Virus record (IMG/VR): IMGVR_UViG_2784746744_000001
Span: 1 to 64,000 of that record
DNA length: 64,000 nt
Strand: one strand, 5' to 3'
Source of the DNA: a virus
This document shows, piece after piece, positions 4,847 through 39,532 of this stretch (the stretch's first letter is position 1; each line of letters begins with the position of its first letter). The notes below the pieces were generated by a model. The model had not been told where the DNA came from. It searched no databases and saw only the letters and a program-made list of their open reading frames with translations. The translations under genes and the position numbers were made by a program.

Positions 4847-5635
4847 TCACTCCAAGCTCACCAGATAGTAGTAGTCGCTCTCACGCTCTTCGATCGTGTA
4901 GGTGATGCCGACGGTGGCGTTTGCATTCGTTAGAACGGAAGCTGAGCATGTCGTCAGCTTGCCTGATTGGGAAACTGTCGAAATGTTAGTGACGTCTTTG
5001 ACGCCAACCTTCAGAAGATTCAGCGGAATGTCTGGGAAGATTGCCTTGACCTGCGCGACACTCAACGACGAGTCGCACGTAGGTGTCGCAAGCCCCAGAT
5101 ATGGCCTCGTGAAGCCTGCGGATGCAAATATCGAGAAAACGACCGAAGCCACCCACGCCAGCATTGTGTATTGCTTCATGCGGAGCCGGCGATTTCGAAT
5201 GAAGATATACAGCGGAGCGAGAAGTAGAGCTCCGAAGAATGGTGTCGCTTCTTTGCGCCGTCCACTTGCCCGCACGGCTTTCTCGTCAAGCGCCGCCAAC
5301 ACTCCGTTTGCCGCTGCGTATGCGAGGAAGATAGCCGGAGTTGTCACTCCGCCATATGATTGCGTAAGTACCGCCTCGATCGCCCAGCCGATTGCCGGTA
5401 CCGTAGCGAGTGTCCAAATCCAGAAACTGTTGATCTCTGATATCGGCAGAGGCGGTGGCGAGCCATCATCTCGCAAGTCATCGACCTCGGCGAACCTGCG
5501 CCAGGTGCTGCCGAGAGATCCGGTCCACACCAGCGTGTCGCTGTTGATGGCGCCGCTTTTGAATTTCGAGATTAATTCGTCGCGAGAGACCGGGCCGAAA
5601 CGCCCGCCATTGTCGCTGTAATGCCAGTCAGTCAT
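4847..5635 (-). CDS. membrane protein with N-terminal GYF_2/DUF4339-like domain
   Basis: 262 aa. N-terminal WHYSDNGGRFGPVSRDEL...DTLVW motif, then multiple TM helices and a C-terminal extracytoplasmic domain. Confidence 0.6.
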   Translation of the reverse strand: MTDWHYSDNGGRFGPVSRDELISKFKSGAINSDTLVWTGSLGSTWRRFAEVDDLRDDGSPPPLPISEINSFWIWTLATVPAIGWAIEAVLTQSYGGVTTPAIFLAYAAANGVLAALDEKAVRASGRRKEATPFFGALLLAPLYIFIRNRRLRMKQYTMLAWVASVVFSIFASAGFTRPYLGLATPTCDSSLSVAQVKAIFPDIPLNLLKVGVKDVTNISTVSQSGKLTTCSASVLTNANATVGITYTIEERESDYYYLVSLE

Positions 5636-31156: not shown

Positions 31157-31550
31157 TTCGGTGTCCTTTTTGAATGTGAACTTGTGACGGATCACAATGC
31201 CTCATGGCCCCGTGAGTTCCATGCGCTGTCATCGAAATCAGCCTGCCATGTCGAGCCGCATGGCGGACCATGGCGGCACCCATGAGCATCCTAGTCCTCT
31301 GTGTCTTTGATTGTGCCGGATACATGCCGTCACCATTGCGGGCATATGCCTAACGTCACGAATTAACGTGAGGGCGCTGCTGACGAGTAGTGGCTGGATG
31401 CACCCATACGGCCATTCACCGATAGATGCTTGCGGCTTGGACGCGGCATTCGGTTGGCCTCCTTAATCCCCACGTCGACCTCTCCTCCGTCGTGTGGTGA
31501 TCCCTGCGGCTGGCTCGCTTCGGCTTGAGCCGGCCGCTTTCGGTTTTTTC

Positions 31551-31627
31551 CGCAGAGTAGAGCAGCCAGGTAGCTTGTCAGGTTCATACCCTGAAGGTCG
31601 CGGGTTCAAATCCCGCCTCTGCAACCA
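31551..31627 (+). tRNA. tRNA-Met (CAT), initiator-like (C1-A72 mismatch)
   Basis: Cloverleaf folded by hand. Anticodon loop TTCATAC. T-arm GCGGGTTCAAATCCCGC. 3-prime CCA. High similarity to bacterial tRNA-fMet. Confidence 0.75.
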
Positions 31628-31635
31628 ACTCCCAT

Positions 31636-31711
31636 GCGCGTCTGGCCGAGTGGTTCAGGCAACGGTCTCCAAAACCGTCTAGGTCGGTTCGATTCCGGCG
31701 GCGCTGCGCCA
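31636..31711 (+). tRNA. tRNA-like sequence, possibly tRNA-Trp (CCA anticodon), with imperfect acceptor stem (possible pseudo-tRNA or att remnant)
   Basis: D-arm GCCGAGTGGTTCAGGC. Anticodon arm ACGGT-CTCCAAA-ACCGT. T-arm GTCGGTTCGATTCCGGC. Acceptor pairing only 5 of 7 and no clean CCA register. Confidence 0.35.
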
Positions 31712-31727
31712 ATCACCGAGAAAACCA

Positions 31728-32363
31728 ATGATCGTCATGACAGTCGTCGGCAGTGGCATGGCCCAGCTTGAAGAAGCGACGATCGTTCTCGGCACACAGG
31801 GACGCGCACGACGCGCTTATTCCCGCGCTATCAACCACACCGGCGATATTGTCCGAAACGAAGCAGGCAGCGCGCTGTCCGCCCAGACGGGTCTTCCAAA
31901 CCGTACAGGCAAGAAGGCTTATCGGATATCCGGCGAGCGTGCTAAGCCAGACACGCTGACGTATGTGGTCAACGGGCAGGGCGGCGATATCGCGCTCAAG
32001 TACTTCAAGGCACGAGAGACCAAGAAGGGCGTCAGCGCCGCGCCTCGTAATGCGAGGCGTGTGTTCGCGTCTACCTTCATGAAGGCTGGATGGTGGCCCA
32101 AGCGAGTTGGCAAGCCCAATTGGAATAAGCAGGTCTTCATCCGTCAGGGCGATGGATACAAGTACAACATCTCGAAGAACAATCCATTCAATGCCAAGCG
32201 CGAGCGCATGAAGACCAACTTCCGCAAAGTGAAGTCAGGCGTCTTCGTCCCGCAGGAGATGGTCCAAGGCCTTGCTGCCGAGGCGTGGAGGAAGGGTGCG
32301 CAGCGCCTTCAACCCCGCGTCGAGCACGAAGTCAGGGCAATGACCAAAGGGATCGTCAGTTAA
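31728..32363 (+). CDS. hypothetical phage protein (basic, possible virion morphogenesis protein)
   Basis: 211 aa, upstream of the packaging genes. No confident family. Confidence 0.45.
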   Translation: MIVMTVVGSGMAQLEEATIVLGTQGRARRAYSRAINHTGDIVRNEAGSALSAQTGLPNRTGKKAYRISGERAKPDTLTYVVNGQGGDIALKYFKARETKKGVSAAPRNARRVFASTFMKAGWWPKRVGKPNWNKQVFIRQGDGYKYNISKNNPFNAKRERMKTNFRKVKSGVFVPQEMVQGLAAEAWRKGAQRLQPRVEHEVRAMTKGIVS

Positions 32364-32414
32364 TGCATTGGATGAAAATAATCGCACAAAATACTGTTTT
32401 CATGCACTTTTATG

Positions 32415-32444
32415 TTGACAGATGTATCGCGCTCGTGGTATCAT
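32415..32444 (+). promoter_or_regulatory. strong sigma70-type promoter TTGACA-N18-TGgTATCAT (extended -10) for the packaging/head operon
   Basis: Near-consensus hexamers with TG extension. Followed by a 160-nt GC-rich structured leader to the TerS start. Confidence 0.55.
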
Positions 32445-32611
32445 GGTGAGGCCACCGGTGGGCACCCCCTCCATTGGGTCCCTCTGACCCTCTGCCGGGC
32501 CTATGCGGGCGGGAAGGCCCGGGCTTGAACTAGGTCCGAAAATTTCCAGAACCGCTTTCCTACTTGTCTAGTCGGCCCGTCTCCCCCGTAGGGGGAGGTT
32601 GAGCCGCAACC

Positions 32612-33163
32612 ATGAAAGTGTTGCCGGCGATGTCCAAAGGTAAGGAAGTCAGCCAGGCCGAACTTTCCGACATCATCGGCAAATCGCAGGTCACGCTTCG
32701 TGCGTGGGAGCGAGAAGGCATGCCGGTACTGTCGAAGGCAGGCAAAGGCAGAGCATCGACCTACAACACGGTCGAGGTGATCGAATGGATGGAAGCCCGG
32801 CTGATATCCAAGTTTGCGGCCAGCAAGGAAGACGACACCGATGTCGTTTCCGAGGATGAGGGGCGCCGCCGCAAGATCGTAGCTGAGGCCAAGCTGGCCG
32901 AATTGAAACTTGCTGTCGAGAGCGGGGAGCTTGTCGAGATCGAGGCCGTAGGGGTCGAGGTCGATACTGTGTTGAGCAGCGTGCGAGCGCGGCTCTTGGC
33001 AATACCCGGAACGCTGGCACTGACGCTGACAAACGAACCGGACCCGTCCGTCGTTCGTGATCGCGTCTTTGACGAGATTTCGGGGGCACTGAATGAGCTA
33101 TCAGCCGCTGATCTCGGCAGGCCGAGCGAAGCTACAGGCGCGCCTGAGGCAATCGAGGCTTAA
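32612..33163 (+). CDS. terminase small subunit (HTH DNA-binding)
   Basis: N-terminal HTH (VSQAELSDIIGKSQVTLRAWEREGMP). Position immediately before TerL. C-terminal coiled coil. Confidence 0.6.
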   Translation: MKVLPAMSKGKEVSQAELSDIIGKSQVTLRAWEREGMPVLSKAGKGRASTYNTVEVIEWMEARLISKFAASKEDDTDVVSEDEGRRRKIVAEAKLAELKLAVESGELVEIEAVGVEVDTVLSSVRARLLAIPGTLALTLTNEPDPSVVRDRVFDEISGALNELSAADLGRPSEATGAPEAIEA

Positions 33164-35219
33164 AGGCCTCACGCCTCCGCCCAAGCTCAATCTCGTTGAA
33201 TGGGCCGACACCTATCGCTTTCTGAGCCCAGAGGCTTCGTCCTCACCGGGCCGCTGGCGCACTTCGAATGTCGAGGTAGCGCGCGGCCCGATGCTGGCGG
33301 CCACGGATCCTCGCATCCACACTGTCACCATCATGTGCTGCACGCAGCTCATGAAGACGGAGCTCATTAACAACGTCGCCGCCTTCTACATCCATCAGGA
33401 TCCGGCGCCGATCATTCTGATTCAGCCGACTACAAAGCTCGGCGAAAGCTGGTCTAAGGACCGCTTCGATAAGCTTCGTCGTGATACGCCGGTTATTCGG
33501 GAACGCGTCCGCGAGGCTCGCTCGAAGGACAGTGGCACGACGATCCTGCACAAGGACTTCGACGGCGGCCACCTGACCATCGTCGGTGCCAACAGCCCGG
33601 TAGATCTGGCCTCGCGCCCGATCCGCGTCGTGCTCGCTGACGAAATCGACAAGTACCCGGCCAGCGCTGGCAAGGAAGGCGATCCGCTTTCACTTGCTGA
33701 GGAACGCGCTGCATCATTTTGGAATCGCAAGTTCATTAGAGCTTGCTCTCCGACCATCGCCGGCAACTCAAAAATCGAATCCGAATATGAGGCGTCCGAT
33801 CAGCGGAAGCCTTTCCTGCCTTGCCCTCACTGCGAGGCGCTGCAGGTCTTGGAATTCGAGCGAGTGCGCTGGGATAAGTCGGTCGACGGCCAGCATCTGC
33901 CGGCCACGGCGCGATATCATTGCGTCGAATGTGATGAGCCTTGGGACGAGACGGCACGCCAGCGAATGCTGCGCACGCCCAACTCGATCGTCTGGCGCCA
34001 GACCGCAACATTCATGTGCTGCGGCGATGAGCAGTCTCCATCCAAGTGGGATGACGACGGCCACTCGCTCTGCACTCACTGCAATAAGCGATCGGCCTTT
34101 GACGGGCATGCTGGCTTCTGGGCATCAAAGCTATATTCGCCTTGGGGCGGGCTGGACGATGTCGCGCGCAAGTGGCTGAAGGCTACGGCGTCCAAGAGCA
34201 GCGAACTGCTCAAGACGTTCTTCAACACTCAGCTCGGCAAGCCTTTCCAGATCACCGGTGACGCACCGGAATGGCGCAAGCTCTATGACCGGCGTGACCA
34301 CCATCACCTCGGTATCATACCGAAAGGTGCTGTGTTCCTCACGGCCGGCATCGACGTCCAGCGCGATCGTGTCGAAATGCATATCTGGGGCTGGGGTCGC
34401 GGTTTAGAATCGTGGCTCGTTGATGTTCTCGTCTTTGAGGGTGTGACCGCCGATATCGGCCATCAGGTCTGGAAGGATCTGGCGACCGCACTCAAGCGGA
34501 CATGGCCACATGCCGGCGGTGCCCACCTGCCAATCATGCGCGCGGCGATCGACACCGGTGACGGACTGACGACTTCGGTTGTCTACGAATGGTGCCGGCT
34601 TCAGGGCCGTGGCCAGGTTGTTGCCATCAAGGGCGACCGCGAAAAGCTCAATGCTGTTTCGCCGGTCGACGGCCCTAAATGGATGGACGTCAAGGTTAGT
34701 GGCAAGAAGATCAAACGCGGTCTGGCCCTCTACATGGTCTCCGGCCCGTTCTTCAAGCAGGAGCTTTACCGCTACCTGCGGCTCGACAAACCCACTGATG
34801 AGGATCTGGCCGTCGGCGTCTGCTTCCCAGACGGCTACGTCCATATTCCTCAGGGCGCGACGGGCGAATGGGTCGAACAGCTCGTCGCTGAGCAGTTGGT
34901 CACTGAGAAAAACAAGATCACAGGCTTCGGCAAACTGAGGTGGGTCAAGACCCGCGAGCGAAACGAAGCGCTCGACTGCCGCGTCTATGCGCGCTCGATG
35001 GTCTGGTTGCTCGGTGCGGATCGCTGGTCGAATGCCCAGTGGTACAAACTGGAGGTTCAATGCGGCGGCTCTGATGAGCCCCCCGAAAGGCCGGCAATCA
35101 TCGCCGCGCCGGTGCCTCAGGCCAAGTCCGAAGATCCACCGCCACCACCACCCGCAAACGACAACCCTGCACCTCCTACGGCAAAGAAGCCGAAGAAGGC
35201 CGCATCATCATGGCTTTAG
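33093..35219 (+). CDS. terminase large subunit (lambda GpA-like). C-terminal PPPANDNPAPP tail
   Basis: 708 aa. GpA-family N-terminal and ATPase/nuclease regions. Start may be slightly downstream (71-nt overlap with TerS). Confidence 0.85.
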   Translation: MSYQPLISAGRAKLQARLRQSRLKGLTPPPKLNLVEWADTYRFLSPEASSSPGRWRTSNVEVARGPMLAATDPRIHTVTIMCCTQLMKTELINNVAAFYIHQDPAPIILIQPTTKLGESWSKDRFDKLRRDTPVIRERVREARSKDSGTTILHKDFDGGHLTIVGANSPVDLASRPIRVVLADEIDKYPASAGKEGDPLSLAEERAASFWNRKFIRACSPTIAGNSKIESEYEASDQRKPFLPCPHCEALQVLEFERVRWDKSVDGQHLPATARYHCVECDEPWDETARQRMLRTPNSIVWRQTATFMCCGDEQSPSKWDDDGHSLCTHCNKRSAFDGHAGFWASKLYSPWGGLDDVARKWLKATASKSSELLKTFFNTQLGKPFQITGDAPEWRKLYDRRDHHHLGIIPKGAVFLTAGIDVQRDRVEMHIWGWGRGLESWLVDVLVFEGVTADIGHQVWKDLATALKRTWPHAGGAHLPIMRAAIDTGDGLTTSVVYEWCRLQGRGQVVAIKGDREKLNAVSPVDGPKWMDVKVSGKKIKRGLALYMVSGPFFKQELYRYLRLDKPTDEDLAVGVCFPDGYVHIPQGATGEWVEQLVAEQLVTEKNKITGFGKLRWVKTRERNEALDCRVYARSMVWLLGADRWSNAQWYKLEVQCGGSDEPPERPAIIAAPVPQAKSEDPPPPPPANDNPAPPTAKKPKKAASSWL

Positions 35220-35228
35220 GAGGCAATC

Positions 35229-35420
35229 ATGGCTGACAATTCTGCACAGATTGCCGCCCTTAGAGAGGCTATCTCGCAGGGTGCTCGCCGCGTTGTATTT
35301 CGTGACGGCGGCACCCACCGCGAGGTGGAGTATCCATCGATGAAGGAATTGCGGGACACGCTCGAGTGGCTTGAGGCCCAGCAGTCTCGGAAGTCGCGCA
35401 TCACGCTGGCGGCATTCTGA
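35229..35420 (+). CDS. head-tail joining protein, lambda gpW-like
   Basis: 63 aa. Position between TerL and the portal. AGGAGG RBS. Confidence 0.55.
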   Translation: MADNSAQIAALREAISQGARRVVFRDGGTHREVEYPSMKELRDTLEWLEAQQSRKSRITLAAF

Positions 35421-35421
35421 A

Positions 35422-36942
35422 ATCATGGGATCAGCAAATCTGCTTGACCGCGCCATTGCGGTAGTGGCGCCGCGCGCGGCTGCGCGTCGTGTCGCTGCCC
35501 GTAGGGCGTTCGATGTCATGTCGCGAGGCTACGACGGTGCTAACCGTGACCGCCTTCGCAATAGCTGGCGCTCGCACAACACGAGCGCAGATGCTGAGAT
35601 CAGCGCCGCCGGCTCGCTTCTGCGAGACCGTATGCGCGATCTCGTCCGAAACAATCCATATGCGGCCAATGCTATGGCCGTCCTCGTCACCCACGCCGTC
35701 GGCGCTGGTATTGTGCCGCGGTCGAAAGACAAGAAGGTCAACAAGCTCTTTGCGGACTGGATGAAGCAATGCGATGCCGACGGTCATCTCGACTTCCATG
35801 GCATCGTTTCGCTTGCTACCCGCGAGATGCTGGAATCCGGCACAGGCATGGTTCGCCGCCGCCGGCGTCTAGCCGAGGACGGCTTGGCCGTCCCGCTTCA
35901 ACTCCAGGTCCTCGAAGTCGATCACCTCGACGCTACAAGGCACGGCGATTTGGCCAATGGCCGGCGAGCTTCTTACGGTATCGAGTACAATGGGATCGGC
36001 AAGACGACGGCCTATTGGCTGTTTCCTAACCACCCCGGCAGCTCGGCGCTGACATCAACGACCTCGTTGTCGTCGGTATCGGTACCTGCCGAGGATATCG
36101 TCTTCGGCTTCAAGAAGCTTCGGGCAGGGCAGTCGCAGGGTGTTCCGTGGGGGCATGCGGCCGTCACGTCGCTTTACGACATGGCCGGCTACGAGCAGTC
36201 AGAGTTGGTCCGCAAGCGCCTTGAGGCCTGCATGGTTGGCGTTGTCACCGGTGGTGATGATGAGGGCGGTGTTGGCCTGCCGATGGGCGATGACGACGTT
36301 CCGGGCGTTTATAACGCCGACGGAGAGATCGTTGAGAAATTCGCGCCGGGCATGCTTTACCATGCTCGTGGTGGCAAGGACATCAAGTTCACCCAGCCGG
36401 CGAACACAGCGAACTACGACTCGTACAAGACCTCTATGCTTCACACGATCGCCGTTGGCTTTCATGTGCCGCACGCTTTCCTTTCCGGTCGGTTGGATAA
36501 GGTCAACTATTCGTCGAGCAAGATCGGCCTCGAGACCTACAAGAAGATCATCGATGACCTGCAATGGCAGGTGATCATTCCAATGATCTGCCAGCCTCTC
36601 TGGGACTGGTTCTGTGAGGCAGCATTCTTTGCTGGCAAGATCCGGACGCGCAAGGTCGCCGTCGAATGGTCTCCGCCACGCTTCCCGAGTGCCGACGAAG
36701 CCAAGGATGTCGCAGCACGTGTTGCCGCCGTTCGTTCTGGTCTGCTCAATCCATTGGTAGCTATCGCCGAGACTGGTTTCACGCCGGAGGAGGTCATCGC
36801 TGGCTATGTCGAGTGGAACGCCTTGCTGGACGACAACAAGCTGATCTTTGATTCCGACCCGCGGCGAATGTCACAGGCCGGCCAGACACAGCAGGACGCA
36901 GAGGCCGACAAGGCTGACGCCTCCAATGAGGACACCTCATGA
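35422..36942 (+). CDS. portal protein (lambda gpB-like)
   Basis: About 507 aa. Typical lambda-family portal position and size. Confidence 0.8.
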   Translation: MMGSANLLDRAIAVVAPRAAARRVAARRAFDVMSRGYDGANRDRLRNSWRSHNTSADAEISAAGSLLRDRMRDLVRNNPYAANAMAVLVTHAVGAGIVPRSKDKKVNKLFADWMKQCDADGHLDFHGIVSLATREMLESGTGMVRRRRRLAEDGLAVPLQLQVLEVDHLDATRHGDLANGRRASYGIEYNGIGKTTAYWLFPNHPGSSALTSTTSLSSVSVPAEDIVFGFKKLRAGQSQGVPWGHAAVTSLYDMAGYEQSELVRKRLEACMVGVVTGGDDEGGVGLPMGDDDVPGVYNADGEIVEKFAPGMLYHARGGKDIKFTQPANTANYDSYKTSMLHTIAVGFHVPHAFLSGRLDKVNYSSSKIGLETYKKIIDDLQWQVIIPMICQPLWDWFCEAAFFAGKIRTRKVAVEWSPPRFPSADEAKDVAARVAAVRSGLLNPLVAIAETGFTPEEVIAGYVEWNALLDDNKLIFDSDPRRMSQAGQTQQDAEADKADASNEDTS

Positions 36943-39205: not shown

Positions 39206-39532
39206 ATGAAGAATTATATCCAGCCGGGCAACACTGTCACGGTAACCGCTCCCTACGACGTTGTGTCTGGCGGCGGCGTTCTTGTCGGCACTATTTTCGG
39301 TGTCGCCGCAACGTCGGCAAAGGCAGGAGAAACCGTCGAGATCAAACTCAACGGCGTGTACGAGCTCGGCAAGACGTCCGCTCAGGCGTGGACGTTCGGT
39401 GCGCTCGCTTACTGGGATGACACCAATAAGGCTGTCACCACGACCGCTTCGGGCAACACGCTTATCGGCAAGACGCTTGCTGTTGCGGCTAACCCGAGCG
39501 CCACCGGCATCGTCCGACTGTCGGCCTCGTAA
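39206..39532 (+). CDS. DUF2190-like head decoration/cement protein
   Basis: 108 aa, Gly/Thr/Ala-rich beta protein immediately after the capsid. Confidence 0.5.
   Translation: MKNYIQPGNTVTVTAPYDVVSGGGVLVGTIFGVAATSAKAGETVEIKLNGVYELGKTSAQAWTFGALAYWDDTNKAVTTTASGNTLIGKTLAVAANPSATGIVRLSAS

Follow-up and report, generated by a model that had tools for sequence, protein, structure and literature searches.

In lambda-like cos sites, the 7-bp cosQ element is highly conserved. The CG dinucleotides that flank both nicks of the partly dyad-symmetric cosN are also conserved, together with its G-rich left half (PMC4669245), and the I2 segment of lambda (bp 18-50) contains an essential static bend of A/T tracts (PMC4856287). 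The cosB of lambda, like that of phages 21 and phi80, is of the complex type, comprising three R repeats and an IHF site in the order R3-I1(IHF)-R2-R1. A simple cosB, with a single R3 and without an IHF site, occurs in N15 and the enteric PICIs, where the first gene is at bp 89-102 (PMC9026076). When the ends of the lambda record NC_001416 are read and joined, the junction has the form GGGTCCT-N23-/GGGCGGCGACCT/CGCGGG-N14-GAAAATTTTCC-N9-CGTTTCCGTTCTT, where slashes mark the nicks and CGTTTCCGTTCTT, at lambda bp 53-65, is R3.

Similarity to the small terminase subunit (TerS) studied here leads to three further phages, Achromobacter phage Mano, Enterobacter phage Arya and Xanthomonas phage FoX2, whose TerS proteins are 27-32% identical to it and whose terS genes lie 82-90 bp from the left end. 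The sequence records of these phages seem to begin at genome ends, Mano being annotated with a PhageTerm-predicted cohesive end and FoX2 carrying a 13-nt repeat at both ends; the Arya record names no method for its ends. In lambda, Mano, Arya and FoX2, all of which have a Nu1-type TerS, GGGTCCT is located 24-32 nt before the right end of the genome, and in FoX2 a CG flanks both nicks (CG/13 nt/CG). The cohesive ends of Mano (7 nt, predicted) and FoX2 (13 nt) differ in sequence and length from the one predicted below. By large subunit (TerL), the closest cultured phages are those of the Rhodobacter RcC cluster (46% identity), which have 11-nt 5' overhangs. Their ends lie about 1.2 kb from terS and carry no GGGTCCT or cosQ-like motif, nor are there cos motifs before their terS; ends next to terS and the motif are thus not found with every gpA-type terminase, and the RcC phages support only the general expectation that a gpA-type terminase means cos ends.

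The locus described here lies in a prophage on a 64,000-nt stretch of DNA (the window), the nearest genome match of which is Endobacterium cereale (Rhizobiaceae). The region at 32464-32570 is read as the lambda-type cos site of this prophage, preceded by a clade-specific insertion that bears a near-consensus sigma-70 promoter. Judged from sequence, this reading is given a probability of roughly 80%. The first-pass annotation had described the region chiefly as a promoter followed by a structured leader, and had offered a pac or cos region beside terS as an alternative; it is the cos part of that alternative that is supported, by the lambda-type arrangement of cosQ, cosN, I2 and R3.

Gene context and the predicted cos core

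The candidate site is preceded by two tRNA genes and a late gene and followed by the terminase and portal genes:

31506-31537: strong terminator-like hairpin, 12-bp stem followed by a T-rich tail
31551-31627: tRNA-Met, inside the prophage, directly after the terminator-like hairpin
31636-31707: tRNA-Trp, inside the prophage, just before the tail-completion gene
31728-32363, plus strand: late gene for a tail-completion/Neck1 protein, 211 aa (PHROG 27, E = 1.7e-17; weak match to Pfam Minor_tail_Z)
32612-33163, plus strand: terS, Nu1 type, 183 aa (Pfam Phage_Nu1, E = 4e-11)
33093-35219, plus strand: terL, gpA type (GpA_ATPase, E = 5e-74; GpA_nuclease, E = 6e-82)
35371-36942, plus strand: portal protein, lambda family (Phage_portal_2, E = 1.5e-91)

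Protease and capsid genes come next after the portal gene. As expected of a lambda-type site, a Nu1-type terS and a gpA-type terL stand directly downstream of the candidate cos. The TerS family profile matches the structure of the gpNu1 DNA-binding domain (1J9I, E = 1.3e-12, through the N-terminal domain of TerS), as well as 6HN7, another solved structure of the lambda family, and RppC (6HLK, E = 1.2e-8). A homologue of the tail-completion gene occupies the equivalent place in most relatives; as it lies to the left of cos, this gene would come last at the right end of the virion genome, separated from the remaining structural genes.

The non-coding DNA before terS contains the following predicted elements:

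32464-32570, plus strand: conserved non-coding cos core, cosQ through R3, 107 bp; based on the gap-free alignment with lambda cos, on relatives and on contig L039 (see below)
32476-32482, plus strand: cosQ-like heptamer GGGTCCC, 6/7 against lambda GGGTCCT, 32 nt before the predicted top-strand nick
32506-32521, no strand: cosN-like nicking site CG/GGCGGGAAGGCC/CG; based on CG flanks and dyad, on relatives and on lambda
32522-32552, no strand: I2-like spacer, containing the A/T tract GAAAATTTCC at 32538-32547
32553-32565, plus strand: R3-like box CGCTTTCCTACTT, single copy, aligning with lambda R3; candidate TerS-binding site

In the window, these appear in the order GGGTCCC, TGCGGGCGGGAAGGCCCGGG, GAAAATTTCC and CGCTTTCCTACTT. 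Lambda and the window have equal spacing between the start of cosQ and the A/T tract, so that the MAFFT alignment of lambda with the family is gap-free from cosQ to R3. The A/T tract is conserved in the family and keeps the lambda spacing (CCCG-N16-GARAWTTT in the family, CGCG-N16-GAAAATTTTCC in lambda), and CG/GGGCGGCGACCT/CG in lambda corresponds to CG/GGCGGGAAGGCC/CG here. Element order and near-identical spacing are shared with lambda, as are the gene types immediately to the right: terS of Nu1 type, terL of gpA type and a portal of the lambda family. The window differs from lambda in several respects. It has one R box, without I1/IHF, R2 or R1; its terS is 105 bp from the predicted nick, compared with 191 bp from the nick in lambda; its cosQ departs from the otherwise invariant GGGTCCT at the last base; its family has a CACCCC motif left of cosQ; a promoter stands directly upstream of cos; and its host is a member of the Rhizobiaceae, whereas that of lambda is an enteric bacterium.

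A second R3-like box, or an rR2 inside terS, was found on neither strand within 32300-33400, and 32360-32700 contains no IHF consensus. The region consequently lacks the three R repeats and IHF site of a complex cosB and has the simple form, with a single box at the R3 position, no IHF site and a short distance between cosN and the first gene, as in N15. This distance is 89 bp in N15 and 102 bp in PICI-C (PMC9026076), close to the 105 bp of the window. N15 differs in carrying an accessory inverted R3 copy (rR2) inside terS (PMC4669245), while the window has a variable palindrome after R3 that is not described for N15.

The cosN candidate is symmetric at positions -2, -1, 1, 2 and 3, with the dyad centred on 32513.5. 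It predicts a 12-nt 5' cohesive end at 32508-32519, in a register given to within 3 nt on either side. The first overhang base would be 32506 from the gap-free lambda alignment, 32507 from the GGGCGG identity and 32508 from the CG flanks plus dyad; judged by where the Arya record starts, the cut would lie about 4 nt further left. Counted from the predicted nick, the R3-like box CGCTTTCCTACTT extends from +46 to +58. By homology with lambda and N15, the Nu1-type TerS would bind this single box, and the I2-like A/T-tract spacer would set the geometry for a dimer of the gpA-type TerL. The dimer would nick symmetrically about 32513.5, placing two nicks 12 bp apart at CG/GGCGGGAAGGCC/CG and leaving 12-nt 5' overhangs at about 32508-32519. 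The cosQ-like GGGTCCC would be needed for packaging termination, when the next cos is cut after the head has filled.

Many phages have a pac site in or beside terS, and the region could on that ground be a pac site for headful packaging. Against this, the terminase is of the Nu1/gpA type, of which the characterized members, and the closest cultured TerL relatives, have fixed 5' cohesive ends, and the elements match the cos subsites one for one; a pac site here is barely credible.

Two side observations concern the surroundings and the frequency of cosQ. A CACCCC/CCCCCC motif at 32463-32469, 39-45 nt left of the predicted nick, is conserved in the family, and the homology to L039 ends on the left at this motif. 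Lambda, Mano, Arya and FoX2 lack it. Several relatives have an inverted repeat, GTGTGGC-N6-GCCACAC, just left of this motif and directly after the stop codon of the upstream gene. In the 64-kb window there are only two copies of GGGTCCY (32476 and 63163), compared with 13 +/- 3.6 in dinucleotide shuffles. Selective removal of stray cosQ sites was rejected as the cause: a maximal-order Markov model expects about 5 where 3 are observed, and composition largely explains the scarcity because words with GGG runs are rare in general. A literature look-up of the heptamer string returned nothing relevant.

Relatives of the locus were obtained mostly by exact-protein look-ups; scans of genome, viral and metagenome collections with TerS and a TerS alignment gave few loci, and blastn of 32300-33200 against 50,697 phage records gave no match. 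Two relatives, L001 and L002, are close (TerS 98% identical), and ten are more diverged (TerS 51-76% identical). All share a non-coding core of the form CACCCC..GGGTCC(T/C)..TGCG-G-N10-C-CG..CTAG..GAAAATTTTC..CTTT(C/G)CT. The pattern GCG-N12-C(G/A) is present in 13/13 relatives and GGGTCC or AGGTTC in 12/13, with the full GGGTCCT in L003, L007, L010 and L038. In the diverged relatives, a 105-nt core around the predicted nick is 61-69% identical, compared with 33-38% for third codon positions of terS, which are saturated; the stretch from the R3 end of the core to the ATG is only 36-49% identical. No contig among those fetched ends at the predicted nick. The starts of L006, L036 and L037 were considered as genome ends and rejected: L006 begins 16 nt rightward of the predicted site, and both L036 and L037 begin at the palindrome before terS, so these look like assembly breaks.

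Palindromes and RNA folding in the leader

Between the -10 box and the terS ATG (32445-32611) lie 167 nt with 65% GC, in agreement with the GC-rich leader of about 160 nt that had been described. That the leader is structured is not borne out. Its minimum free energy of -68.9 kcal/mol compares with -67.4 +/- 4.5 kcal/mol for shuffles (z = -0.33, with 69/200 shuffles as good), and the opposite strand gives z = -0.19. Three palindromic features are found in it:

32452-32461, no strand: perfect 10-nt palindrome CCACCGGTGG, an inverted repeat, not conserved
32495-32522, no strand: inverted repeat CCGGGCCT (32495-32502) / AGGCCCGG (32515-32522), 12 nt between arms, surrounding the cosN candidate
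32581-32597, no strand: palindrome/hairpin CCCCCGTAGGGGG (CTCCCCC-GTA-GGGGGAG), 7-bp stem, GTA loop, -13.9 kcal/mol

Among the perfect palindromes reported in the first-pass annotation, CCCCCGTAGGGGG is confirmed, having a 7-bp stem and a 3-nt loop, while GGCCACCGGTGGGC is palindromic only in its 10-bp core CCACCGGTGG. The pair given as GCCCGGGC...GCCCGGGC is a misreading of the CCGGGCCT/AGGCCCGG inverted repeat, as GCCCGGGC is present once (32517-32524). The CCACCGGTGG palindrome is missing from the closest relatives, L001 and L002, as a 10-nt indel, and looks like the junction of a tandem duplication of about 10 nt of GGTGAGGCCACC. The outer arms of the 32495-32522 inverted repeat are specific to the clade, other relatives retaining only the inner CGGG...CCCG symmetry. 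The suggestion that the palindromes mark a pac or cos region is right to the extent that this inverted repeat overlaps the predicted nick; the other palindromes listed are mostly not the informative elements.

A second reading of the leader is as a cis-regulatory RNA (an antitermination site, riboregulator or translational operator) whose hairpins control expression of terS and the head genes. The promoter directly upstream makes it probable that the region is transcribed, the 32581-32597 hairpin is stable (-13.9 kcal/mol) and covers 4/5 bases of GGAGG, and several relatives have palindromes with compensatory stem changes at the equivalent place. The leader nonetheless matches no Rfam family, its folding energy equals that of shuffles, and no covarying or conserved RNA structure is found across 13 relatives, RNAalifold giving -3.25 kcal/mol with an unfavourable covariation term of +0.66. 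Folding and covariation across relatives, which had been proposed as a check, thus yield no supporting structure, and the two closest relatives lack the first palindrome. What is conserved is primary sequence, in a block that aligns to the lambda DNA packaging site. Ten relatives have no promoter here, and L039 has the block before a different gene. The GGAGG lies 13 nt from the ATG, and covering of the ribosome-binding site by the hairpin is not conserved. A regulatory RNA leader is accordingly considered very unlikely. The cos reading would account for the character of the leader, which is probably GC-rich and palindromic because it is a protein-recognized packaging site rather than a folded regulatory RNA.

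The palindrome before terS presents a further question of function. It overlaps the GGAGG situated 13 nt before the ATG. In the window, L001-L004, L007 and L011, a palindrome built around a 3-nt centre begins 73-74 nt away from the predicted nick; its spacing to the ATG ranges between 13 and 31 nt among these lineages. The stems differ, as CTCCCCC, as CTGACGTTAC / CTGA(T/C)GTTAC variants with paired substitutions, and as GGCCGC in L039; similar palindromes are found in L036, L037 and L039, and none is present at the equivalent position in L010, L012, L015 and L038. The palindrome may serve as a second TerS site or form a hairpin in DNA or RNA, or it may be a lineage feature, and the paired stem changes would favour selection for base pairing.

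The first of these options can be taken further, with the palindrome at 32581-32597 as the TerS recognition site that defines cosB, instead of or besides the R3-like box, and with a dimeric winged-helix domain on the dyad. The position would fit, being fixed at 73-74 nt from the predicted nick in seven lineages whose ATG distance is variable, and the DNA-binding domain of lambda TerS is a tight dimer (PMC4669245). Its sequence also varies between TerS lineages, as does the cosB specificity of lambda and phage 21. However, the stems are wholly different between lineages, with paired substitutions more typical of base pairing than of protein contact, L010, L012, L015 and L038 have no palindrome there, and L039 has one without a terS. 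Recognition of the palindrome by TerS is possible but doubtful, and the R3-like box is kept as the candidate binding site.

The promoter upstream of terS

The segment between the tail-completion gene and the core has the following features:

32364-32449, plus strand: AT-rich promoter-bearing segment, 37% GC, present in the alignments only in the window, L001 and L002
32415-32420, plus strand: -35 hexamer TTGACA, from sequence, identical in L001 and L002
32436-32444, plus strand: extended -10 element TGgTATCAT, with TG and TATCAT identical in L001 and L002
32450-32452, plus strand: predicted transcription start, placed by the usual distance from the -10 element

The hexamers TTGACA and TATCAT (32439-32444), separated by an 18-nt spacer ending in TGG, match the consensus at 11/12 positions and include the TG of an extended -10. 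Among the matches of at least 10/12 on both strands of the 64-kb window, this is the only one with 11/12 plus TG, and a first-order Markov model expects 0.01 such matches per window. The spacer is about 39% identical to that of L001 and L002, where it is one base shorter, whereas all 14 specified bases are identical and the flanking DNA is 90-96% identical among the three. The near-consensus promoter reported at 32415-32444 therefore stands, with hexamers kept over a diverged spacer. The pattern of conservation argues for function, as far as three closely related sequences allow.

In the ten more diverged relatives, no sigma-70-like site occurs within 400 nt of terS, and the conserved block begins almost directly after the stop codon of the upstream gene; the promoter is therefore regarded as a clade-specific insertion. 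Because it is inserted between the tail-completion gene and cosQ, transcription of terS, terL, portal and head genes could start about 25 nt before cosQ and run on through cos. In lambda, transcription crosses cos from the distant pR', and in most relatives the operon must similarly be read through from the upstream late gene.

The promoter-like sequence might instead be a chance or inactive match, in which case the operon would depend entirely on read-through transcription out of the upstream late gene, as in lambda. Ten relatives manage without a promoter at this place, its 18-nt spacer is suboptimal, and a lysogen should suffer from a strong, unregulated promoter ahead of its terminase genes. 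Set against these points are the mere 0.01 such matches expected in 64 kb, the location in one of few intergenic gaps, and the identity of the 14 specified bases in L001 and L002 around 17-18 nt that are only about 39% identical. A chance or inactive match is unlikely, and the clade-specific promoter remains the preferred reading.

Constitutive activity of a strong promoter in front of the terminase genes would harm a lysogen. As terminase expression beside a chromosomal cos should harm the lysogen, the promoter is probably regulated. No operator or regulator of it was identified, and neither the promoter segment nor its spacer has a copy elsewhere in the 64-kb window that might be a shared operator. 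It can be speculated that the diverged spacer between the invariant hexamers is a lineage-specific or immunity-specific operator.

Several smaller features were observed in and around this segment. The spacers at 32421-32438 and at the corresponding position in L001 and L002 each contain their own small repeat. An AT-rich inverted repeat, TGGATGAAAA-N18-TTTTCATGCA, occupies 32369-32406, its centre about 63 nt upstream of the predicted start, and L001 has a different repeat, AAAATGATG / CATCATTTT, at this place. The window's repeat could bind a regulator or act as a weak terminator of the upstream gene. Another promoter-like site close to consensus, GTGACA-N16-TATAAT (11/12, without TG), lies on the minus strand at 39213-39240, antisense in the head-gene region.

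Occurrence of the core outside the terminase context

A pattern built from the core led to L039 (IMGVR_UViG_3300006051_000038, a 6.4-kb contig), in which a 107-bp core at 5165-5270 on the minus strand is about 93% identical to 32464-32570 and the flanks are unrelated. No promoter, terS, terL or portal is found on this contig. The genes after the block encode a 231-aa unknown protein, a protease-capsid fusion, a decoration protein, a tail chaperone and a tape measure. With its unrelated flanks and without terS, the L039 copy indicates that the block is a self-contained DNA module, independent of a role as terS leader. One homologue occurs in a Neorhizobium genome, and no other viral contig carries it. 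L039 may represent a satellite, or a prophage after deletion, that relies on the terminase of a helper.

Other loci have the family cos beside shortened TerS-like proteins, namely L017, L018 and L019 (Pseudorhizobium MAG DASYHX010000141.1 and others) and L038. The TerS-like proteins of L017 and L038 are 163 and 172 aa long and lack the C-terminal tail, and neither terL nor portal lies beside them. In L038, the TerS-like gene is followed by a tail-completion homologue, thus located downstream of terS instead of left of cos, and then by a tail chaperone and a tape measure. The arrangement in L017 and L038 resembles the cos-rpp layout of enteric PICI satellites.

A broader interpretation takes the cos core to be a portable packaging module exploited by reduced, terminase-less elements and, separately, the hypervariable promoter spacer to be an immunity-specific operator that silences terminase in the lysogen; it is considered improbable. 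If L039, L017 and L038 were satellites, the phage family of the window would be their helper in the Rhizobiaceae.

The locus is most likely a lambda-type cos with the simple architecture of N15, an element of a known kind in a host group that is less familiar. The prophage family thereby gains a predicted packaging site and a predicted 12-nt cohesive end, which may be of use for annotating genome ends, for predicting cos-type transduction and for cosmid-like tools in the Rhizobiaceae. A GC-rich, palindrome-laden leader before terS is better tested first as a DNA packaging site than as an RNA element. The lambda arrangement of cosQ, CG-flanked cosN, I2 A/T tract and R3 appears to persist, with near-identical spacing, in alphaproteobacterial prophages. 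As it is kept where TerS is barely recognizable as Nu1, the non-coding site would be conserved over a wide evolutionary distance.
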